Below, in pieces: positions 49,044 through 64,000 of a DNA stretch of 64,000 nt. The position numbers and the translations under genes are program-made. The stretch lies in assembly GCA_028690055.1 (NCBI GenBank), contig JAQVBZ010000005.1:379-64378 (forward strand). Reading direction: 5' to 3'. Source of the DNA: Minisyncoccota bacterium (GTDB taxonomy: Bacteria > Patescibacteriota > Minisyncoccia > JAHIHE01 > JAGLIN01). Position 1 is the stretch's first letter, and each line of letters opens with the position of its first letter. Under the pieces are notes generated by a model. It did no database searches and was not told the DNA's origin. It worked only from the letters and a program-made list of their open reading frames with translations.

Positions 49044-49700
49044 TTAGTTCTTAATAACATCTACCACTTTACCATTTATAATGAACTCGTCATCCTCACT
49101 AATATAAATTGGCATATATTCATGATCTGACCGGGCTCGCAAAACAATCCTATTATTTTTTATATCACGGTTATATTCTTTTATGGTAGCCAATCCGTCA
49201 ATAACTGCCAGTACTATATCGCCATTGTTGTAACTCTTTATTTCACGGTCTACCAGTACATAATCACCGCTTTCAATTTTATTGCCATTAACTTCGGCTT
49301 GGTTCATGGAATCTCCGTCAGTTTTAATGGCAAATAACCTGTTTTTATTTCTTGGTAAAAGGCTGGATGATACTTTAAGATATCTTTCAACCTTTTGTTC
49401 GGCATATATAGCCGCTGGTCCACAATTTGCAGCTCCTACTATCGGAATGGAGAATAAAGGACTTTTGCTGACATGGTTATAACCTTTCTTAACGACTTTC
49501 AGTATTCCTTGCTCTAGATTCATCTGTATCAGCCCAGCTTTTTCTAATTGCTGAAGATGGTGTTTAGCAATCTGGGGTTTACCTTGGGCTCCTATAAGCT
49601 CGGCGATTTTTCTTAAGCTCAACGACCCTATGTCTGGGGTGTTGGCGATAAGATTTAATAATTGTTGTTGTGTTATATTCATATGCAATAAATATAGCAC
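49044..49700 (-). CDS. LexA/CI-like repressor (wHTH + S24 peptidase domain)
   Basis: 218 aa. N-terminal winged helix. C-terminal S24 domain with GDSMNQ catalytic Ser motif and conserved Lys. Divergent to the phage-like genes. Confidence 0.75.
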   Translation of the reverse strand: MLYLLHMNITQQQLLNLIANTPDIGSLSLRKIAELIGAQGKPQIAKHHLQQLEKAGLIQMNLEQGILKVVKKGYNHVSKSPLFSIPIVGAANCGPAAIYAEQKVERYLKVSSSLLPRNKNRLFAIKTDGDSMNQAEVNGNKIESGDYVLVDREIKSYNNGDIVLAVIDGLATIKEYNRDIKNNRIVLRARSDHEYMPIYISEDDEFIINGKVVDVIKN

Positions 49701-49797
49701 ACCCCGGGGGATTTCGCAAGTACTTTTGTAAAAGTATTTGACATTTTACACCTAGTAGGTATGATGAAGTTATAAATTAATTCATAAATTTATTTTT

Positions 49798-50208
49798 ATG
49801 GAAAACTACGAGTTGCAATTGAAGCCTTTTGAAAGGAAGGACGGTTATAAGTATAAGGTAATTCGGCTTACCGATGTTACTCTCCATACTTCAAATAAGC
49901 GACCTACTAAGGCTATGGGCAAAAAGATTAAACAAGCGTTCGAACAAAACAAGCCCGGCAGGTTTTATGGAATAAAACCCCATGAAGTAATGGAAGGTGG
50001 TGATTTGCCCACGCTTATCAACAATCTTGTTAAGAATGATCCGAATTTCTTGAAAATGATCCAAGAAGAAGAGAAGAAGGGTTATAAGGTATTGCTCGAG
50101 TTGCCCGAGGAAGGCATTCCTGCTATATTTGGGCCAGATACGGTAGAATTTTTAAATAGCAAGAATGGACAGAGAATAATGAGAGATATTCATAAGCAAG
50201 AAATATAG
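49798..50208 (+). CDS. Hypothetical phage-associated protein
   Basis: 136 aa. First gene of the rightward operon. Confidence 0.4.
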   Translation: MENYELQLKPFERKDGYKYKVIRLTDVTLHTSNKRPTKAMGKKIKQAFEQNKPGRFYGIKPHEVMEGGDLPTLINNLVKNDPNFLKMIQEEEKKGYKVLLELPEEGIPAIFGPDTVEFLNSKNGQRIMRDIHKQEI

Positions 50209-50374
50209 CACTTTTTCACAATCGAATTAATGCGTAGTAAAAAGTAGAATAGCGTATCGCCTAAAAAACCATGCCTATTCCGCGCAAGAAACAAGTCTTA
50301 GACTTAAATGTCGGAGGCCTGTTTCATGTGTGGGATAGGTTTTTTTATATTTAAATTACTAACCATATGAAATT

Positions 50375-51649
50375 ATGGAAAAGTTAAAATGGCACACTGT
50401 GCAAAAAAGGATTAATGATCTGATTCCTCAGGAAGCTAATCCTCGAAAAATTACCGATAAGCAAATGTCGGATTTGAAGAAAAGTTTGTCTAAATTCAAT
50501 CTGGTAGAAATCCCGGCTGTCGATTTAGACGGCAGGATACTAGCAGGGCATCAAAGAATCAAGGCGCTTCAGCTCCTAGGGCGAGGCGAAGAATTGATTG
50601 ATATCAGGATTCCTAATCGTCAGTTAACCGAGGATGAGGCCAAAAGATATCTCCTTGCCAGTAATGCCTTGGGTGGTGACTGGGATTTCGACAAATTAAA
50701 AACCTTTGACTTGGATTTGCTCATTGACATTGGTTTTGATCAGATTGATTTGTCTCATTTCTGGGATAATGAACTCGAAATAAAAGAGGAGGATTTTGAT
50801 GTCGAAGAAGAACTGAAAAAAATAAAAACGCCAATAACGAAACCCGGTGATCTGATACATCTAGGCTGTCATCGTCTGTTATGCGGCGATTCTACTAATC
50901 CGGATAATCTAAAAAAGTTGTTTGGAGGAGAAAAGGCCTCGATGATATTCAGTGATCCGGTTTATAATATAAAACTCGATTATTCAAAGGGCATTGGCGG
51001 CAAAAATGAATATGGCGGTGCGGTTAATGATAATCGAAGCTATGATGAATACAAACAGTTTATCAAAAATTCCCTATTAGCCGCTTTGCCTAATACAAAT
51101 TCGGATTGTCATGTCTTTTATTGGTGTGACCAGACCTATATCGGCCTGATACAAGAATTGTATCGTGAATTAGGCATAATCAATAAACGAGTTTGTTTAT
51201 GGATTAAAAACTCACAAAACCCTACTCCAATGATTGCGTTCAACAAATGCTATGAGCCCGCAGTCTATGGTGTAAAAGGCAAACCATTCATAAACCCAGA
51301 CATAAGGAACTACAATGAGATATTAAACAAGGAACTAGGCACCGGGAACGAGTTATTTGAGGATATACATGATTCCTTGGATATCTGGCTCACCAAAAGG
51401 ATATCAGGTAAAGATTATGAGCATGCAACTAGCAAGCCATCAAAGTTATACGAAAAAGCTATTCGAAGATGCACTAAGCCGGGCGATATCATTCTTGATT
51501 CATTCTCTGGATCGGCCAGCACTATTATGGCTGGAGAACAACTAAAGAGAAAAGTATATGCCATGGAGCTGGAGCCAATCTTCTGTGATTTGGCGATAAG
51601 AAGATATAGAAAATTAACTGGCAGAAAGGAGGTAGTAAAGCATGTCTAA
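50375..51649 (+). CDS. ParB-like nuclease domain fused to DNA methyltransferase (phage-type orphan N6A/N4C MTase)
   Basis: 424 aa. N-terminal ParB/Srx pattern (EIPAVDLDGRILAGHQRIKAL), motif IV-like FSDPVYN, motif I-like DSFSGSASTIMAGE. Confidence 0.8.
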   Translation: MEKLKWHTVQKRINDLIPQEANPRKITDKQMSDLKKSLSKFNLVEIPAVDLDGRILAGHQRIKALQLLGRGEELIDIRIPNRQLTEDEAKRYLLASNALGGDWDFDKLKTFDLDLLIDIGFDQIDLSHFWDNELEIKEEDFDVEEELKKIKTPITKPGDLIHLGCHRLLCGDSTNPDNLKKLFGGEKASMIFSDPVYNIKLDYSKGIGGKNEYGGAVNDNRSYDEYKQFIKNSLLAALPNTNSDCHVFYWCDQTYIGLIQELYRELGIINKRVCLWIKNSQNPTPMIAFNKCYEPAVYGVKGKPFINPDIRNYNEILNKELGTGNELFEDIHDSLDIWLTKRISGKDYEHATSKPSKLYEKAIRRCTKPGDIILDSFSGSASTIMAGEQLKRKVYAMELEPIFCDLAIRRYRKLTGRKEVVKHV

Positions 51650-52064
51650 GAAAAACAGATTACAGCAAGCATTCTTTGAAGAACTAAAGAAAGTTCCTAT
51701 CGTGCTAGTGGCTTGTGAAAAATCCGGCATCTCCCGCAATAGCGTTTATCGTTGGAAACGGGAAGATAAGGAATTTTCCAGGGCGATGGATGAAGCTTTG
51801 GCTGAGGGCGAAGCTCTGGTAAACGATATGAGCGAAAGCCAGCTTCTGACTTTGATCAAAGAAAAGAATTGGTCAGCTATCAGTTTCTGGCTTCGTCATC
51901 GCAATCCAAAATTTAAGGATAAGATAGAGGTGACTTCGAGGAATGAAAACGTTGACGAATTAACGCCATCACAGGCGGAAACTGTACGCCAGGCTTTGAA
52001 ATTGGCCAATATCCTGCCTCAAGATGAACAAGTAACTGATAAGCCTAATAATCCAACTCTATGA
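51642..52064 (+). CDS. Phage terminase small subunit
   Basis: 140 aa. HTH pattern GISRNSVYRWKREDKEF. Overlaps neighbours by ATGTCTAA/ATGA (translational coupling). Directly upstream of the large subunit. Confidence 0.6.
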   Translation: MSKKNRLQQAFFEELKKVPIVLVACEKSGISRNSVYRWKREDKEFSRAMDEALAEGEALVNDMSESQLLTLIKEKNWSAISFWLRHRNPKFKDKIEVTSRNENVDELTPSQAETVRQALKLANILPQDEQVTDKPNNPTL

Positions 52065-53527
52065 AACCGAACAACATGATACCTCAGGCCTTGGTGGAAC
52101 AAATGACTAAGGACAGGAAGATAAGAACAGCAATAACTAAGGAAAGCTTCTCTTATTTCTTTCACTTTTATTATGCTCATTATGTTAAATATGCGACCGC
52201 CGATTTTCAAAAAGAAATCATAAGCTTGGTTGAAAAGAGCGACAAGGAAAATCTCTTTGTCGTGGCCTTCAGAGGTTCGGGTAAGTCTACCGTTATTACT
52301 GCCGCCTATCCGATCTGGGCAATCCTTGGCAAACAAGAAAAGAAATTTGTCGTCATTTTCTGCCAAACTCAAGCTCAGGCCAAGCAGCACATGATGAACT
52401 TGCGACGTGAATTAGAAGATAATGACTTATTAAAAAAAGACCTTGGCCCCTTCAGGGAAAATAGCGATGAGTGGGGCGCGCAATCAATCGTGTTTTCCAA
52501 TACGGATGCTCGTATTACCGTTGCTTCAGTGGATCAAAGTATTCGTGGCATAAGGCACTATCAACATCGACCGGATTTGATTATCTGTGACGATGTCGAG
52601 GATATAAGTTCCACTAAAACTAGGGAGGGAAGAAATAAAACCTATCAATGGCTAAAGAGCGAAGTGATACCAGCTGGTGATAGAGATACCAGATTGATAA
52701 TAGTCGGTAATTTATTACACGAGGATTCCCTGCTTATGAGGTTAAAGGAAGAAAGAGAAAAAGAGGTTATTGATGGCAACTTTCTGTTTTATCCGTTAAT
52801 TGACAAGAAGGGTGATTGTCTATGGCCGGGCAAATACCCAACCGATGAAGATATTGAAAATGAGCGCAGAAAGGTCGGTAATGAGATTACCTGGCAACAA
52901 GAATACCTACTTAATATCGTTCCGTCCGAAGATCAAGCTATATTTCAAGAATGGATAAACTATTACGATGAGATACCGGCACCTCTAAAACTATATGGCG
53001 GTTATAGTTCGTATATGGAAATAAGAATTGGAATTGACCCAGCTATTTCTAAAAGTGATGTCGCTGATTATACTGCTATGGTTCCTGGTATGTTATATGA
53101 AACTACGTCTAACTATAAGCTTTATATTCTCCCTAAAATAATAAATAAGCGTTTAAGCTTCCCTGAAACAGTTGATGCTTGTAAAACATTATATCAGAGC
53201 TACAAAAGAGATTCTGTTTATCCAAAATTCATCATAGAAGATGTGGCTTATCAAAAAGCCTTGCCTCAACAACTGCAAGTCGAGGGTATTTATAATGTAA
53301 TGACAACCAGGCCAGGAAATCAGGATAAAAGAAGTAGACTTATCGTACTAGCTAACCTAATTAAAACTGGACAAATATTGTTCCCAAAGGAAGGAGCGGA
53401 GGAACTAATACAACAGATAGTCCATTTTGGGGTTGAAAAACATGATGACTTAGCTGATGCCTTTGCCAATTTAGCTCACAGCATGATTGAAAAACCGCCG
53501 AGATCGTGCAGAGTCTATTGGGTATAG
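52061..53527 (+). CDS. Phage terminase large subunit
   Basis: 488 aa. Walker A AFRGSGKST, Walker B LIICDDVED, C-terminal RNaseH-like nuclease acidic residues. Confidence 0.8.
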   Translation: MKPNNMIPQALVEQMTKDRKIRTAITKESFSYFFHFYYAHYVKYATADFQKEIISLVEKSDKENLFVVAFRGSGKSTVITAAYPIWAILGKQEKKFVVIFCQTQAQAKQHMMNLRRELEDNDLLKKDLGPFRENSDEWGAQSIVFSNTDARITVASVDQSIRGIRHYQHRPDLIICDDVEDISSTKTREGRNKTYQWLKSEVIPAGDRDTRLIIVGNLLHEDSLLMRLKEEREKEVIDGNFLFYPLIDKKGDCLWPGKYPTDEDIENERRKVGNEITWQQEYLLNIVPSEDQAIFQEWINYYDEIPAPLKLYGGYSSYMEIRIGIDPAISKSDVADYTAMVPGMLYETTSNYKLYILPKIINKRLSFPETVDACKTLYQSYKRDSVYPKFIIEDVAYQKALPQQLQVEGIYNVMTTRPGNQDKRSRLIVLANLIKTGQILFPKEGAEELIQQIVHFGVEKHDDLADAFANLAHSMIEKPPRSCRVYWV

Positions 53528-54406: not shown

Positions 54407-55696
54407 ATGCCTGAAAAGAAAAATAGACGAGAGGAATATTTAGAAAGTACAAACGAGGACAAAGAAATATATTTTTTTATTGATGAATTTCAAAAAATAA
54501 ATATTAAATCTCGGGAAGTGTATATCAAAACCAATAAAGTTATTCATCATCCATTTAATAAATCTGGAAACTTTAAATATAAAAAAATAACAGAAATTAT
54601 ATATGAAGGATTGCCAGATCCACTGCCTAGAGGTTTTATCAAAGATTGGAGGCTTGGGTATGGTTTTACGAAAGTATTGAATCCAATACTTTATTTGATT
54701 GAAACAAAATTTGATGTGTCGAAAGTTGTCGTGAAGCCAAAAGGAAAATTCATGATAAAAAATAGAACGGTATACCTTAGTTATGAAGATTTGAATAAGT
54801 TCTATCCGAAAATGGACACTCTTATGAAAGTTCAGAGTAGTCAAAAAGAAGCGTTAGTCTCAAAATATCTTAGTCAGTATCTACCTACAGAATTTAAAGA
54901 TAGTAAACAAAAATATATAAAAGGATCAATTTATTCGATTGTCACAGACCAAATTGGTAAGGATGGATCAATTTCAAAGGATGATTATGATGCTATGCTT
55001 GAGCTAGTTGTATCGAAGTCAAGCGAGCAAACGATTGAATCGAAAAAAATAGTTTTAGCCACAAAGGAAAAAATCGAAAAAATATTCTTAGAAGATGGGG
55101 TTAAAGATTTTAAAAAAATATTAATTTTAAAATCTGTTTCTGGAGGATTTGAGAAAAAATGGGAACAGTTTTTCAAGGAGAATACATGGATTATCTCCAA
55201 TCTGTTCTCTCTCCCTGCATTGCTGTTTGCTAATCAGGCTTATGTGGGCGGAAAGGAAATCTTCAATACTAATGGAAAAGTGACGGATTTTTTATTTAGG
55301 AACAAATTGACCGATAATTTGGCAATTATTGAACTCAAAACTCATAAAACTGAGCTATTGTCCAAGAAGCCTTACAGAGGAGATGATGTATACTCATTAT
55401 CCGAAGAACTATCTGGCGCCGTTAATCAAGTATTAGACCAAAGGCAAAATTTACTAAATGATTTTTATGCCTTAAGATGCAAAACTGGCAATACGAATCA
55501 ATTTGAATCATATAATTCTAGATGTCTTATAATCGCTGGTAAAATCGAAGATCTTCCTAAAAATGGTAAAAGAAGTTTTGAAATTTTCCGAAATAATCTA
55601 CATGGCGTTGAAATTGTTACATTTGATGAGGTGCTGGAGAAAATGGAAACTTTTGTTTCTTTAATTAAGACGGATGCTAAAAAAAGAAAGAGATAG
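54407..55696 (+). CDS. Large PD-(D/E)xK nuclease-domain protein (Shedu/DUF4263-like candidate)
   Basis: 429 aa. C-terminal half carries D...DNLAIIELK (hydrophobic strand + ExK) and ends ...GVEIVTFDEVLEKME. The family assignment is tentative. Confidence 0.35.
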   Translation: MPEKKNRREEYLESTNEDKEIYFFIDEFQKINIKSREVYIKTNKVIHHPFNKSGNFKYKKITEIIYEGLPDPLPRGFIKDWRLGYGFTKVLNPILYLIETKFDVSKVVVKPKGKFMIKNRTVYLSYEDLNKFYPKMDTLMKVQSSQKEALVSKYLSQYLPTEFKDSKQKYIKGSIYSIVTDQIGKDGSISKDDYDAMLELVVSKSSEQTIESKKIVLATKEKIEKIFLEDGVKDFKKILILKSVSGGFEKKWEQFFKENTWIISNLFSLPALLFANQAYVGGKEIFNTNGKVTDFLFRNKLTDNLAIIELKTHKTELLSKKPYRGDDVYSLSEELSGAVNQVLDQRQNLLNDFYALRCKTGNTNQFESYNSRCLIIAGKIEDLPKNGKRSFEIFRNNLHGVEIVTFDEVLEKMETFVSLIKTDAKKRKR

Positions 55697-58569: not shown

Positions 58570-59853
58570 ATGCTTCCATTAGAAACTAAGCTGAAATACT
58601 GCTTATATGCTAGAAAAAGCACTGAATCAGATGAGCGACAAGCCTTATCAATTGATTCTCAAGTTAAAGAAATGCTTCAAATAGCCGAACGAGAAAACTT
58701 AGAAATCGTTGATATCAGGAGAGAATCAAAATCAGCCAAAGACTCAGGTAACCGTCCTATCTTCAAAGAGTTAATCAAAGATATAACGGAAGAAAAGTTC
58801 AACGCTATCATTACCTGGGCTCCCGATAGACTTTCTAGAAACGCTGGCGATTTAGGATCGCTAGTTGATTTAATGGATGAGAAAAAATTAATGAGCATTC
58901 GTACTTTTGGCCAAACTTTTAGTAATTCTCCAAATGAAAAGTTTCTGCTCATGATTTTATGTTCTCAGGCCAAACTAGAAAATGATAATCGAGGGATAAA
59001 CGTAAAAAGAGGTTTAAGGGCAAGATGCGAGATGGGCTTATGGCCGACCTGTCCGCCAACGGGATACTTTAAAGAAAAGCGAGTTGATCATAAAGGACAA
59101 TGCTTAGTTGATCCTGATAGAGGTCCGGTAATAAAGCAAATGTTTGAGAAGGTTGCTTATGAGAAATGGTCCGGCCGAAAGCTTTATAACTGGCTTAGAT
59201 TCGATTTAAACTTTAGGACAGCTTTAGGTAAAAAACACTTAAGTCTCGGTAATATTTATCGACTTCTAGAAAATACCTTCTATTATGGCCCTTTTGAATA
59301 TCCTCGTGGTAGTGGTAACTGGTATCAGGGAAAACATGAACCGATAATCACCAAAGAAGTATTCGATTTAGTCCAAGAACAGATGAAGAATTCCCAACTA
59401 GTCAGACGAGAGAATATTGAGTTTGCCTTTACTAAAGTAATGAAGTGCGGTTTATGCGGTTCGGGAATTTCAGCCACGGAAAAATTTAAGAAGTTAAAAG
59501 ATGGCGGCTATAATCGCCATGTCTACTACGGATGTACCAAAGCAAAAGACAATAATTGTAAATCAGGCTATATTAGCGAAGAAGACCTGATTAAACAATT
59601 ACAAAAACAAATCGATAAATTGGATTTTAAAAAAGTTTCTATTCAAGATAAAATTCAGGGAGAAATCAAAAGATTCAAAAAGTTTCAAATCATGGCAACT
59701 GGCAAAAATGACAATATCGACGTAAGCGACGTCGATATTAAAAATTACATCAAATTCTTGTTAAAAGAAGGAGACGATCAAGAGAAACGAGAACTACTCA
59801 CATGCTTAAATGGGGAGATATTGTTGAAGAATAAGGTGATTGTGATTAAATAA
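58570..59853 (+). CDS. Large serine recombinase (phage-type integrase)
   Basis: 427 aa. Resolvase catalytic domain with YARKSTESDERQ (nucleophile Ser), recombinase domain, zinc-ribbon CGLCGSG...YYGCTK. Confidence 0.85.
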   Translation: MLPLETKLKYCLYARKSTESDERQALSIDSQVKEMLQIAERENLEIVDIRRESKSAKDSGNRPIFKELIKDITEEKFNAIITWAPDRLSRNAGDLGSLVDLMDEKKLMSIRTFGQTFSNSPNEKFLLMILCSQAKLENDNRGINVKRGLRARCEMGLWPTCPPTGYFKEKRVDHKGQCLVDPDRGPVIKQMFEKVAYEKWSGRKLYNWLRFDLNFRTALGKKHLSLGNIYRLLENTFYYGPFEYPRGSGNWYQGKHEPIITKEVFDLVQEQMKNSQLVRRENIEFAFTKVMKCGLCGSGISATEKFKKLKDGGYNRHVYYGCTKAKDNNCKSGYISEEDLIKQLQKQIDKLDFKKVSIQDKIQGEIKRFKKFQIMATGKNDNIDVSDVDIKNYIKFLLKEGDDQEKRELLTCLNGEILLKNKVIVIK

Positions 59854-59881: not shown

Positions 59882-60619
59882 CTATTTAATCACATTCCAA
59901 TTATCGAGAAAATATCCCATTTCGTGATCCATATTACCGAGATAAATCTTCTCATCTCTAAATTTGATATTTACGCGGTAGCGTTTGCCGTGCCCGACTT
60001 CCAAAATTGCTTTTTCGTGGACTTTCTTCTCAACTTCGTGAAATGGCAAAATTAGAAAGTGATTTTTCTTTTCTCCGTGCAGGACGAAAATATAAAAAAC
60101 ATTGCCGTTACTATGTCGCTCAAAAGAAACTTTGCGGATATCAAAAACATAGGTATTAAATCGATTAATATTTGAAGTTTTAACCTGTATGCCAAATAAC
60201 TGATTATCTCTGACAGCCACAATGTCTATTCCGACATCTACGCTCATTATGCTGGCATTGAAACCACGAAAAAGGAGTTCCGAGCAAACAAGATGTTCAC
60301 CGCCTTTGCCGGTAAATCCACCTTCAATTACAATCTTTTCCTCCTCAGCCTTTTCCACCTCTCGGATTCTTGGTGTTTCTCTGATTTCTTTTTTGTTTGG
60401 GTTAAGGGCATAAGTTCCGGGGGCAATTCTTACAAAATCTGATCCTTCGCCTTTGGTTTTGATATCCACCACAATCTGCGCCTTCATAGTCGCTTCCGGC
60501 GTTGCGCCTTCGGTTTCCAGAAGGCCGGACTCCAAGGCTAAACGAGTGATTTCGGTATAGTGCAGAGGCTTTTTAGTTTTTTGCAATATTTCAATAGCGG
60601 ATTGTTTGAAGGTGTTCAT
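59882..60619 (-). CDS. HARE-HTH domain protein with C-terminal restriction-endonuclease-like (PD-(D/E)xK, Mrr-cat-like) domain
   Basis: 245 aa. N-terminal SAIEILQKTKKPLHYTEITRLALESGLLETEGATPEATMKAQI (HARE-HTH pattern). C-terminal E (GGEHLV) ... VDVGIDIVAV ... GIQVKTS. Confidence 0.55.
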   Translation of the reverse strand: MNTFKQSAIEILQKTKKPLHYTEITRLALESGLLETEGATPEATMKAQIVVDIKTKGEGSDFVRIAPGTYALNPNKKEIRETPRIREVEKAEEEKIVIEGGFTGKGGEHLVCSELLFRGFNASIMSVDVGIDIVAVRDNQLFGIQVKTSNINRFNTYVFDIRKVSFERHSNGNVFYIFVLHGEKKNHFLILPFHEVEKKVHEKAILEVGHGKRYRVNIKFRDEKIYLGNMDHEMGYFLDNWNVIK

Positions 60620-60625
60620 ATTGTA

Positions 60626-61516
60626 TTAACTAACGATGTTGTGTTTTTTAAATATATCTAGAAAAGTTGGAGTTGCAAACCCGAAAGAATAGTTAGCATT
60701 TAAGGTTTCAATAAAAGCTTTCTCCTTGTAGACTTTCAATTGTTTTGCATTCTCTTCAGAAATCATATTCTCTCGTTCATTGATTCTTATTGACCTGAAT
60801 CCCTTGACGATAGAAATAACTTTTCCCGTTTTTACATCAAAAATTGGGCCACCGCTATTTCCCGGGTTAAATGCAAGTGTAAATTCATATAAATAATTTG
60901 TTGTAGAAGTCTGGTATCGACAATTAACAACGCCTCGATCTGTTCGAAGTAAAATATTGCCGATCAGTGGCTTATTTATATCTCTTTCTTGAAATCCAAG
61001 TTCACAAAGTGGGTATCCGAGCACGCCAACCTCAGAGCCGATTGGTAAAAATTCTTTCGATATTCTTATAAAATCATTTCTATCGGCGAATATTCGATCA
61101 TTAACTTGATAAAATTCATCATCCAAATAAATAACAGCGAGATCAATATCAGGATAGATAAATATTTCTTTATCTAATTTTGGTTCAAAAATTCTACAGT
61201 GCCAATTATTATCATCATCGTGCCTCAAAAGATAATATTTATCGCCGTTTTGATGTTGGGCTAGTTCATCCTTCTCCGGATCATTTATAACATGTGCAGC
61301 CGTAACATATCGGTTTGGAGCAGCGATAAAGCCTGAACCCAAAGTAATCCAATTGATACTTTCTTGTTTGTCGATCTTAATTTTTCTGCCACGAACAATA
61401 ATATAAACAGATTTTTTTAACCATTTAACACATTCGGGAAACGAGTGAAAATTTTCCGGTCTTTTTGGAAGTTTTGGCCCTTGATATTTTTTATCTCTTT
61501 TATTCTTTTTAGGCAT
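60626..61516 (-). CDS. Trypsin-like (S1 family) serine peptidase
   Basis: 296 aa. His motif VTAAHVI, Asp in IDLAVIYLDDE, Ser motif GNSGGPIFD. Confidence 0.7.
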   Translation of the reverse strand: MPKKNKRDKKYQGPKLPKRPENFHSFPECVKWLKKSVYIIVRGRKIKIDKQESINWITLGSGFIAAPNRYVTAAHVINDPEKDELAQHQNGDKYYLLRHDDDNNWHCRIFEPKLDKEIFIYPDIDLAVIYLDDEFYQVNDRIFADRNDFIRISKEFLPIGSEVGVLGYPLCELGFQERDINKPLIGNILLRTDRGVVNCRYQTSTTNYLYEFTLAFNPGNSGGPIFDVKTGKVISIVKGFRSIRINERENMISEENAKQLKVYKEKAFIETLNANYSFGFATPTFLDIFKKHNIVS

Positions 61517-61536: not shown

Positions 61537-62073
61537 TTAAAATTGAAATGCTTTTTCTTTATATTGATTTATTTTTTCTGATAAACTATCAATCTCTTTA
61601 ATTTTTTGACGAATAGTTTTAGGCGTCATCGACACTTTCTTAAATTTCACAAATCCTTCATCTGTATCCACAACAATTTTCGCTCTAACATATCCATCTT
61701 TACTAAGCGATTGCCAATTTGCGTGAACAATACTATTCCTAAATGTATTTAACTCATTAAGTCGATTTCGTAGTTTATCCAAAATTGCTTTGTGTTTTTT
61801 GTTATTAAACGATTCTAAACGAACATACATCTTATAAAAAAGATCGATTTTATTGCTTGTCGTTAGTTTTTCAATAATTACGAATCCAGTTTCGTGGCTA
61901 TCATCATGCAAAAAATCTGCGATTGCGATGTTTAACTCTTGTTCTAAAATACTGAAACTAACTAGAAATTTTCCAATTAACAAGAAATATTTATCAGCTA
62001 CTTTTTCCAGATATTCTCCGTCTGAAAAATCATACTGTTCCATCTCATCATAAATTACTTGATTCGTATTCAT
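61537..62073 (-). CDS. HEPN-like (Abi_2/AbiD-AbiF-type) abortive-infection-like protein
   Basis: 178 aa. Conserved R-N-x-x-x-H (FRNSIVHANW) near the C-terminus of a helical domain, as in Abi_2 HEPN proteins. Confidence 0.45.
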   Translation of the reverse strand: MNTNQVIYDEMEQYDFSDGEYLEKVADKYFLLIGKFLVSFSILEQELNIAIADFLHDDSHETGFVIIEKLTTSNKIDLFYKMYVRLESFNNKKHKAILDKLRNRLNELNTFRNSIVHANWQSLSKDGYVRAKIVVDTDEGFVKFKKVSMTPKTIRQKIKEIDSLSEKINQYKEKAFQF

Positions 62074-62131: not shown

Positions 62132-63295
62132 TTACCGATTTCCTTTTGCTCGATTGTGTGTCTTACACAACATCTCGCAGTTTTTAATATCACTCTTACC
62201 ACCCTTACTCCATGCCGAAACATGATCGGCGTCCATATCCGCAATACTCCAAATCTTGTCTTTGTTTGCATCGTGTCCAATCGCACAGTGAGAGCAGTTT
62301 GAAACACCCTTTTTCTTTGCGATAGCGGTTTGAGCTTCGTAAACTGAACGTTTAGTTGAATCCTCAAATACTCGTACTTCAAGAAGTTTTGTTTCAACTC
62401 CTCCACCTAAAACATACTCAAAAATGCCTTTTCGACTTTTTACGAAACCATCAGCATAGAGTTTTTTAACCAGGGCAGAGACGGTAGTTGGATTGAATTT
62501 TTTCTTGTGATAAGTTTCGTAAAGCCTGTTCCACTCCAAGCCTTTCATCTCACTTTCAACTTCAGTAAATGTACTTGAGACCCAATCAATAACAGTGTCG
62601 AAATGTTTTTTTAGTTCGGTAATATTTTTGTCATTGCGGTGCTTACTCATGTAACTATCGATACCACCACCAGAAACCCAATCTAAAGCCCGTTCCAAAT
62701 ATGCTTGGCGCTTTATATCACCTGCAATGTACGCGCCCCATTTAAGCACATTGGCATTTTGACTATTGCTAAATTCTTCGCGGCCACGAGTGACAAAAGG
62801 CCCAGAATATACTGCGTTAAGAATCTCTTGTTCGGTTAATGGTACGCCAGCGATGTTGATAGTCTTAAACCAATCCTTAATCTCAGGCTCGTCGCCTTTA
62901 CATATATACACCAACAATTTAGTGTTCATTATTTGCTCGCGCTGACTGGTGGCCATACCGCTGTAATACTGTTCGTGACCATTCTTGTCTTTAACAGCAA
63001 ACTTGCCTTTCACAAACCGACCAATGCTAGTGATACGTTGCTGTCCATCGAGCACTTCAAATTTATCATTGTCAACTTGGTTGAAATAAATTAAACCTAT
63101 TGGATAACCTTTCAAGATCGAGTCAATTACAGCAACATCACGTTTGCCGTCAGCGTAAATGTAATTACGCTGATACTCTGGTTGAATAGTCAGTTTACCA
63201 GAGAGGCCAAACAAACCCTTTCCTTCGAATTCGTTATATTCGAACCCGTCACAAACTTCTTTAATGGTGATATCATTCTTTAAGGTTGTTTTCAT
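62132..63295 (-). CDS. GmrSD-like DUF262 (ParB/NTPase-like, DGQQR) + DUF1524/HNH endonuclease protein (type IV restriction-like)
   Basis: 387 aa. N-terminal [10 protein letters not shown]...[11 protein letters not shown]-terminal HNH: HCAIGH...[32 protein letters not shown]. Confidence 0.8.
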
Positions 63296-63296
63296 A

Positions 63297-64000
63297 TTAT
63301 TTTTTCTTGTGCTTAATAAAAATTCGCTTGTAAGCCATTTTTGCTATGCCATCTTCATAAAAACCAGCAGTAGGATTGCCTTCTTTGTAAGCACCAGTGC
63401 CACCAGCTTTGTAATAGTCTTCTACAAATTGTTTTTTTAAACCAGGAGAGGTCTTATACTTATCATCTACGAGGCCGTTATCGCTTGTCCCTAAAATATC
63501 AAATTGTCCGGGTGAATATTTATCTAAAAAACTGATTGGTACGCCCATAACGCCGTTGTAGTCTTTCGGAATATTTTTTACTAAAGCAATTTCAATCGCA
63601 TCATAATTGTCATAGTGTACGAATGGCTTGTTTGTACTGAACTTTATAACATCGGCGTGAGTCATTAAGGGAATCGGTTGGTGTAGTCGTCCGTGATCAA
63701 GATTTGTAAACCAACGCACCCCTTGGACTCTTGTTATATAAGTCTTTTTACCTTTTTCGTCAGTCTTAATTTCACGCACTTGGTCTAAGTTTGCAACAGC
63801 TTCTGGAATCTCGTAGAACATTGCACCACCGTTAACTCTTGCATTGTTTCCGAGCCATACCTTATTCTCTTTGATCATTGGAAAAATTTCCTTATAGGTT
63901 ATTGCATTGAGATTACCAATGATTAGAAATTGCTTTTTATGCTCGAAAAGTTGCGTAATATATTCCCGAAATAAACTAAATGGAGGATTGGTGACTACGA
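63297..64000 (-). CDS. Adenine-specific DNA methyltransferase, C-terminal part (partial; N-terminus beyond window)
   Basis: The reading frame stays open upstream of the annotated Met to the window edge and encodes ...[47 protein letters not shown].... NPPF is motif IV of gamma-type/EcoRI-like N6A MTases. The stop lies 1 nt before the GmrSD-like gene start. Confidence 0.6.

Follow-up and report, generated by a model that had tools for sequence, protein, structure and literature searches.

The 64,000-nucleotide stretch of Minisyncoccota DNA analysed here (the window; contig JAQVBZ010000005.1, positions 379 to 64,378 of the forward strand) carries at its end two adjacent minus-strand genes, one for an EcoRI-type DNA methyltransferase (methylase) and one, immediately downstream, for a protein in which a DUF262 domain is joined to an HNH nuclease domain. 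The methylase gene (63297..64000, minus strand) runs off the window edge, leaving the 3′ part that encodes the C-terminal 233 of approximately 397 amino acids; its frame (63297..63998) is open to the edge, and its translation starts VVTNPPF. The nuclease gene (62132..63295, minus strand), encoding the putative R component, is an open reading frame (ORF) of 387 amino acids. At the junction between the two (63293..63299, minus strand), the methylase stop codon TAA (63299-63297) is followed by a single spacer nucleotide (63296) and the ATG of the nuclease (63295-63293), the 1-nt gap that had originally been described, and the two genes are likely to be translationally coupled across it. The cassette is real, intact, very common and already catalogued as type II, and this instance of it is therefore ordinary. 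Architecture and comparative evidence nonetheless make the family as a whole a probable new variant of restriction-modification (R-M).

The methylase fragment matches the Pfam family EcoRI_methylase (PF13651) at 3.5e-65 and 221 bits (cut-off 26.4), covering profile positions 142-345 of 345, and PADLOC MTase_II at 5e-53. It is also 46% identical over 169 amino acids (E 3e-46) to genuine M.EcoRI, the reference for which comes from a 5.6-kb E. coli plasmid with a gene for R.EcoRI as well. By homology, the window methylase is an M.EcoRI-family N6-adenine methyltransferase. Its NPPF sequence (63978..63989, minus strand), which is catalytic motif IV of N6-adenine methyltransferases, aligns with the TNPPF of M.EcoRI; given the 46% identity of the fragment to that enzyme, the motif is not fortuitous, and the EcoRI-like adenine methyltransferase that the original prediction placed upstream of the nuclease is thereby upheld. 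In M.EcoRI, H235 has been implicated in DNA intercalation, bending and specificity (PMC2396439), and the histidine in 'GRLHQP' of the window methylase (63681..63683, minus strand) aligns with this residue (H236 counting Met1). Two Patescibacteria/Saccharibacteria contigs (L008 and L010) encode 397-amino-acid methylases whose residues 165-397 are 96% identical to the fragment, which places approximately 164 N-terminal codons beyond the window. The S-adenosylmethionine-binding N-terminal part lies there, and is present in both of these homologues. A comparison of a full-length methylase with PDB sequences gave marginal matches only, and an NCBIfam search returned no named family for either methylase or nuclease.

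In the nuclease, Pfam recognizes an N-terminal GmrSD_N/DUF262 domain (1e-22, residues 36-163) and a C-terminal HNH domain (PF01844, 2.6e-6, residues 347-387), in keeping with the GmrSD-type DUF262 and HNH content first noted for this protein. PADLOC REase_II (PDLC03418) spans it from end to end (8.4e-84, residues 6-386 against profile positions 5-371 of 372). The DUF262 domain (62807..63190, minus strand), a putative nucleoside triphosphate (NTP)-binding domain of ParB/Srx fold, contains QR (Q42-R43, 63167-63172), DGQQR (D83-R87, 63035-63049) and FxxxN (F143-N147, 62855-62869), the motifs that define functional DUF262 NTPase domains (PMC12137116). All three are invariant across the nuclease homologues (alignments A1 and A2). 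They are followed by a middle region (62297..62806, minus strand; approximately residues 164-333) that is mostly helical in the AlphaFold2 secondary structure and has no block-wise variable segment, per-window conservation ranging from 0.67 to 0.92. The C-terminal zinc-type HNH domain (62135..62296, minus strand) comprises C334-x2-C337, D357-H358, N372, C373-x3-C377 and H380-N381; a Cys4 zinc site (C334, C337, C373 and C377) surrounds D357-H358, N372 and H380-N381. These residues, too, are invariant in both alignments, and the domain aligns with the Cas9 HNH core 'DHV…N…NR.KGN'.

The best PDB fold match of the AlphaFold2 model is BrxU, a GmrSD-family protein (E 3e-4), followed by ParB CTPases for the N-terminal part and by Gme HNH and McrA for the C-terminal part. 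Searches of PDB sequences with the nuclease and its HNH tail were marginal (BrxU, E 0.33; Cas9 HNH, E 1.1), and the sequence similarity to BrxU is limited to the DUF262 motifs. The nuclease shares with GmrSD and BrxU an N-terminal DUF262 domain with QR, DGQQR and FxxxN, after which come a helical linker and a His-Me nuclease. It differs from them, however, in being approximately 200 amino acids shorter, in ending in a Cys4 HNH domain (PF01844) rather than in DUF1524, and in being obligately linked to a methyltransferase, whereas those proteins stand alone. The DUF1524 nuclease domain and the GmrSD-family membership that had been suggested for this protein must accordingly be revised: Pfam finds no DUF1524 in it, the C-terminus being a canonical Cys4-type HNH, and without DUF1524 or a stand-alone habit it is not a GmrSD protein in the strict sense. 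Neither a helicase nor a PD-(D/E)XK domain was matched in it by Pfam, NCBIfam or PADLOC.

Close homologues of the nuclease number more than 8000, and in a scan of one genome per species at least 593 genomes encode it; the cassette is especially common in Patescibacteria and Bacteroidota. Among 80 loci retrieved, 73 had enough upstream DNA for linkage to be judged, and 64 contained complete related pairs. In 72 of the 73 informative loci, which come from many phyla, the nuclease is preceded on its own strand by an EcoRI-family methylase, and relatives whose nuclease is only 36-45% identical to the window protein keep the same methylase partner, including on plasmids. The junction measures −4 to +9 nt in 50 of the 64 pairs, 14 of these having +1 as in the window. 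Far from being atypical, as had been supposed, the coupling is thus the rule across the family, and PADLOC REase_II already covers the nuclease. A literature search found no paper describing the methylase–DUF262–HNH pair or its enzymology. In one entry of the representative library (P0192, 688 amino acids), EcoRI_methylase, GmrSD_N and HNH occur in a single polypeptide, which is explained either by natural fusion of methylase and nuclease or by a read-through in gene calling.

The pair is found on a 9-kb Moraxella plasmid and on plasmids of Enterococcus, Lactobacillales and Actinomycetota. It is also inserted as a moron in the cultured Flavobacterium siphovirus vB_FspS_laban6-1 (L086, 10219..12581), where it adjoins the tape-measure gene in opposite orientation and its nuclease is 69% identical. 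Nucleotide homology between the window and related cassettes stops exactly at the stop codon of the nuclease gene (62131/62132); the mobile unit therefore consists of the methylase and nuclease genes. In 14 of the 64 pairs the junction holds 0.35-3.1 kb, mostly inserted passenger genes, and among these passengers are RhuM, DUF2130, an OLD-like AAA+TOPRIM ATPase, Bro-N, and a Dam-type methylase with a ParB-like protein (loci with inserts: L010, L020, L029, L045, L049, L050, L056, L058, L062, L069, L071 and L085). A MUG113/T5orf172-like gene occupies the junction in L016 and L017, in both of which the methylase is cut by the contig end. The methylase–nuclease junction is a hot spot for insertions, a pattern that has been described before for genes lying within R-M operons. 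In 4 of the 64 loci the gene immediately preceding the methylase encodes a C protein-like helix-turn-helix (HTH) protein; with so few instances, C-protein control was rejected as a defining part of the cassette. In the window itself, the corresponding position falls beyond the edge.

Three loci depart from the paired arrangement. In L041 (4454..5623) the nuclease ORF is intact with all its motifs and has no methylase upstream, only RhuM, and in L043 (4825..6004) and L088 (2059..2995) nuclease ORFs that are likewise intact in all motifs lie beside frameshifted methylases. These loci may reflect either tolerance of the nuclease in the absence of the methylase or sequencing errors, and they carry little weight because L041 and L043 come from metagenome-assembled genomes.

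Against this constancy of the nuclease stands the variability of its partner. The methylase scaffold, which is 66-72% identical between loci, is broken by two hypervariable modules. Module A, a putative target-recognition element, is flanked by 'LWLG' and 'W[FY]TNLDHGR' and comes after a conserved aromatic-x-x-P motif; in the window it covers fragment residues 51-93 (63720..63848, minus strand). Close to the C-terminus, after 'QFEILG', is module B, which corresponds in the window to fragment residues 170-221, after 'QFDIL' (63336..63491, minus strand). Among 63 loci, module A sorts into at least 13 types that cannot be aligned with one another (mean identity 24.5%), the window having type 1, and module B into at least 24 types among approximately 60 loci (mean identity 27.4%), the window having b-type 1. 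The identity of neither module follows that of the nuclease (rho 0.02 for A and 0.13 for B), and A and B assort independently of each other. Scaffold identity, by contrast, correlates with nuclease identity (rho 0.31-0.38), and scaffold and nuclease co-evolve. It had been expected that both the N-terminal half of the methylase and its target-recognition domain would lie outside the window; this holds for the N-terminal part, of some 164 codons, but not for target recognition, the two putative modules being inside.

The swapping of modules independently of the nuclease is seen most directly in pairs of close relatives. The methylases of L018 and L020 are nearly identical over their first ~200 residues, yet both modules are replaced, while the nucleases are 94% identical. 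Likewise, five Flavobacterium loci whose nucleases are 90-95% identical have four different module A types. Substitutions between near-identical nucleases are few, scattered and conservative, and no block among them resembles a matching recognition element. Overall, mean pairwise identity is 77% for the nuclease against 59% for the methylase, the nuclease being the more conserved of the two in 98% of 2016 locus pairs.

A different pattern is seen where the partner is an EcoRI-family PD-(D/E)XK nuclease (in E. coli, Klebsiella and Staphylococcus rostri): these methylases all keep the M.EcoRI modules A and B, and diverge elsewhere in the protein, outside the module pair. Single M.EcoRI-like modules also occur beside DUF262–HNH partners. 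The methylase of L048 has an M.EcoRI-like module B, 'KFRKGNDDKDLSINGKCPYFRILIK', and an M.EcoRI-like module A, 'NGMGRWISGFIVPESYELYG…', is found in L019, L025, L052, L061, L065, L068, L071 and L078; in none of the 63 DUF262–HNH loci do both occur together. This occurrence of one or the other, and never both, suggests that A and B recombine as separate units. A phase-variable shufflon was considered as the source of this diversity and rejected, there being no silent methylase cassettes in any locus; the diversity is therefore allelic or acquired by transfer rather than produced by local switching. The conserved histidine that aligns with M.EcoRI H235 lies 13 residues after module A, which would put this module near the DNA. 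From these patterns we infer that modules A and B are the target-recognition elements of the methylase. In type I hsdS and type III mod genes, target-recognition domains (TRDs) are exchanged between alleles, and by analogy the two modules behave like such domains.

On balance, we lean towards the view that the nuclease has no sequence specificity of its own and is either steered by the methylase modules or itself a reader of N6-methyladenine (m6A), which would make the cassette a class of R-M not described before. No sequence-specific nuclease could track the module swaps and still be 94-95% identical. The form of this view that we rank first, tentatively, is a two-gene R-M cassette in which the methylase sets the specificity and the nuclease takes its target from the methylase, in a manner resembling type III systems; it needs the fewest new assumptions and fits both the tight coupling and the fusion protein. 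In this scheme, the cassette would move as a unit between chromosomes, plasmids and phages. The M.EcoRI-family methylase would mark host DNA, with modules A and B deciding which sequence is marked, and the DUF262–HNH protein would be a constant effector, lacking specificity itself and directed to its target by the methylase, just as Mod directs Res. Activity of the HNH domain would in turn be licensed through the nucleotide switch of DUF262, and the zinc HNH nuclease would cut unmarked incoming DNA, methylation presumably blocking cleavage of the host's own. Gating of the nuclease by NTP is probable in view of the invariant QR, DGQQR and FxxxN motifs and the predicted BrxU- and ParB CTPase-like fold. 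The idea that a DUF262 nuclease serves as the R component of an unconventional R-M system, for which SspE had been offered as a comparison, agrees with the comparative evidence.

The resemblance to type III systems (Mod/Res, for example EcoP15I) extends to the mod-then-res gene order and its tight coupling, and to swappable methylase modules (putative TRDs) upstream of a conserved nuclease–NTPase that has no variable block tracking them. Res, however, combines a superfamily 2 (SF2) helicase ATPase with PD-(D/E)XK, whereas the window nuclease combines a ParB/Srx-type fold with HNH; the window methylase belongs to the EcoRI family rather than to the type III Mod family, and the subunits are far smaller. 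With no SF2 helicase and no PD-(D/E)XK domain, the cassette is therefore not a member of type III, and the resemblance is one of logic only.

Several points weigh against a nuclease that is directed by its methylase. In PADLOC, the nuclease family carries the label of an ordinary type II restriction endonuclease (REase). The single fusion protein could be an artefact of gene calling, and orphan or frameshifted loci number only three, two of which (L041 and L043) are metagenome-assembled. The AlphaFold2 model of the nuclease is of moderate quality (predicted local distance difference test (pLDDT) 77, predicted template modelling score (pTM) 0.48). To our knowledge, moreover, the characterized DUF262 relatives GmrSD, BrxU and SspE act without a bound partner protein.

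The last of these relatives provides the model for the strongest alternative, which we nevertheless regard as unlikely: the DUF262–HNH protein would read the m6A mark directly, in any sequence context, as a self signal. Recognition of the mark would drive NTP hydrolysis, thereby licensing or restraining the HNH domain, and the methylase would only write the mark, without any complex being formed. All characterized DUF262 nucleases sense modification, and the 'recognize-hydrolyze-activate' scheme by which SspE works with its self mark (PMC13251355) counts in favour of such a mechanism, as does BrxU being the best fold match. Direct reading would also account for a nuclease that does not track the module swaps, and for the intact nucleases beside absent or broken methylases. 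As in the SspABCD–SspE system, a DUF262 NTPase with an HNH-type nuclease would be the restriction arm while other genes write the self mark. The SspE mark, however, is a phosphorothioate made by SspABCD, whereas here it would be m6A, predicted to be made by one methylase; the window nuclease is half the size of SspE, and its nuclease domain is of a family other than the DUF1524 of SspE. No ssp, dnd or other phosphorothioation genes were found in the vicinity of the cassette, whether in the window or in related loci. Three points speak against a context-blind reader: searches of Pfam, NCBIfam and PADLOC found no recognizable m6A-reader domain in the nuclease; a complex would explain the tight translational coupling and the fusion protein no less well; and sparse marks would force such a reader to judge self and foreign over long distances.

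The catalogued assignment, that of a classical type II system in which the DUF262–HNH protein itself recognizes and cuts the sequence of the methylase and methylation blocks cleavage, is ranked next and appears doubtful. Beyond the end-to-end REase_II match and the MTase_II match of the methylase, it is favoured by the simple methylase-then-nuclease layout and by the C protein-like HTH gene upstream in the few loci mentioned above. The kinship with EcoRI R-M itself is clear as far as the methylase is concerned, which is a homologue of M.EcoRI with the same PF13651 domain, TNPPF motif and scaffold, and compact two-gene cassettes on small plasmids are common to both. It ends there, however: R.EcoRI is a PD-(D/E)XK enzyme and the partner in the window DUF262–HNH; the order is nuclease–methylase in EcoRI and methylase–nuclease here; and window modules A and B bear no relation to their M.EcoRI counterparts, so that GAATTC specificity is not implied for the window methylase.

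The usual course in classical type II systems is for the REase to diverge faster than its methylase. The nuclease of the present cassette is instead more conserved than its methylase, near-identical nucleases are paired with wholly different modules, and the nuclease has no variable block that co-varies with these, unlike EcoRI-type REases, which are tied to a single module pair. Intact NTPase motifs would likewise not be expected in a type IIP enzyme that needs only Mg. A classical type II mechanism is possible if the modules do not set specificity.

Site statistics have been considered in this context as well. GAATTC is modestly depleted in the window (23 observed versus 36.6 ± 5.4 in shuffles), which could be taken as a trace of a type II enzyme; palindrome depletion is general, however, and not specific to one site. 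Palindrome avoidance was computed on approximately 0.9 Mb of host DNA and on the window alone, without control genomes: GGCC and GATC are lowest, and GAATTC is unremarkable (observed/expected ratio (O/E) 0.74). Because depletion is general and no site can be assigned without control genomes, derivation of the recognition site from palindrome avoidance was dropped. The most depleted 4-bp palindromes in the 64-kb window are GGCC (O/E 0.48) and GATC (O/E 0.60), which also rank lowest across 70 cassette-carrying host sequences; their depletion may reflect other R-M systems.

Chance adjacency of a stand-alone type IV GmrSD-like nuclease and an unrelated orphan methyltransferase, which the GmrSD_N domain and the usual type IV role of DUF262 enzymes might suggest, is very improbable and, because the linkage is conserved (it holds in 72 of 73 loci from different phyla, from plasmids and from a phage, the junctions measuring −4 to +9 nt), effectively excluded, the more so as methylase scaffold and nuclease co-evolve, the nuclease has no DUF1524, and a nuclease dependent on its partner's own mark would kill the host.

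The cassette occupies the margin of a defence island or prophage remnant. The nuclease gene is followed, on the same strand, by three candidate defence genes, encoding a 178-amino-acid HEPN-like protein with the Rx4H motif 'RNSIVH' (61537..62073), a trypsin-like protease (60626..61516), and a protein with HARE-HTH and PD-(D/E)XK-like domains (59882..60619). Only the last recurs beside the cassette, and in a single locus (L068, 48% identity). These genes were rejected as parts of the system because they are not conserved there and because homology stops at the nuclease stop codon. Beyond the HARE-HTH gene, on the opposite (plus) strand, is a gene for a large serine recombinase (58570..59853; Resolvase, Recombinase and Zn ribbon domains). 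Homologues of this recombinase are found within a few kilobases of the cassette in 7 related loci, one of them (L052, 68% identical) having it immediately downstream of the nuclease gene, and the cassette may therefore travel on islands mobilized by serine recombinases.

Further into the window, a Shedu gene (54407..55696, plus strand) adds a second defence gene at a distance of approximately 6.5 kb from the cassette and encodes a 429-amino-acid protein with an SduA_C domain (Pfam 7e-25). It is preceded by a module resembling a prophage remnant (49044..53527), with genes for an S24/LexA-like repressor (49044..49700, minus strand), a 424-amino-acid N6_N4 DNA methylase (50375..51649), a terminase-small-like HTH protein (51642..52064) and a terminase-large-like protein (52061..53527). 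Neither the Shedu gene nor the terminase-like genes are conserved beside the cassette in other loci. A promoter and terminator scan gave results no better than those for shuffled sequence.

Although at least 593 species-level genomes, as well as plasmids and a phage, carry the cassette, no paper was found on how it works. Should it prove to be an ordinary type II system, it would be one more member of a catalogued family. If, on the other hand, the nuclease is specificity-less, nucleotide-gated and steered by the methylase, the cassette would be a minimal R-M system of approximately 2.4 kb that joins the compactness of type II to the modular specificity of types I and III, and a change of specificity would need only recombination within the methylase gene. 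DUF262 nucleases would then extend beyond type IV and phosphorothioate-linked roles to self/non-self discrimination based on m6A, and the at least 13 × 24 natural methylase modules beside one constant nuclease would offer a system in which to study, and perhaps to reprogram, DNA recognition.

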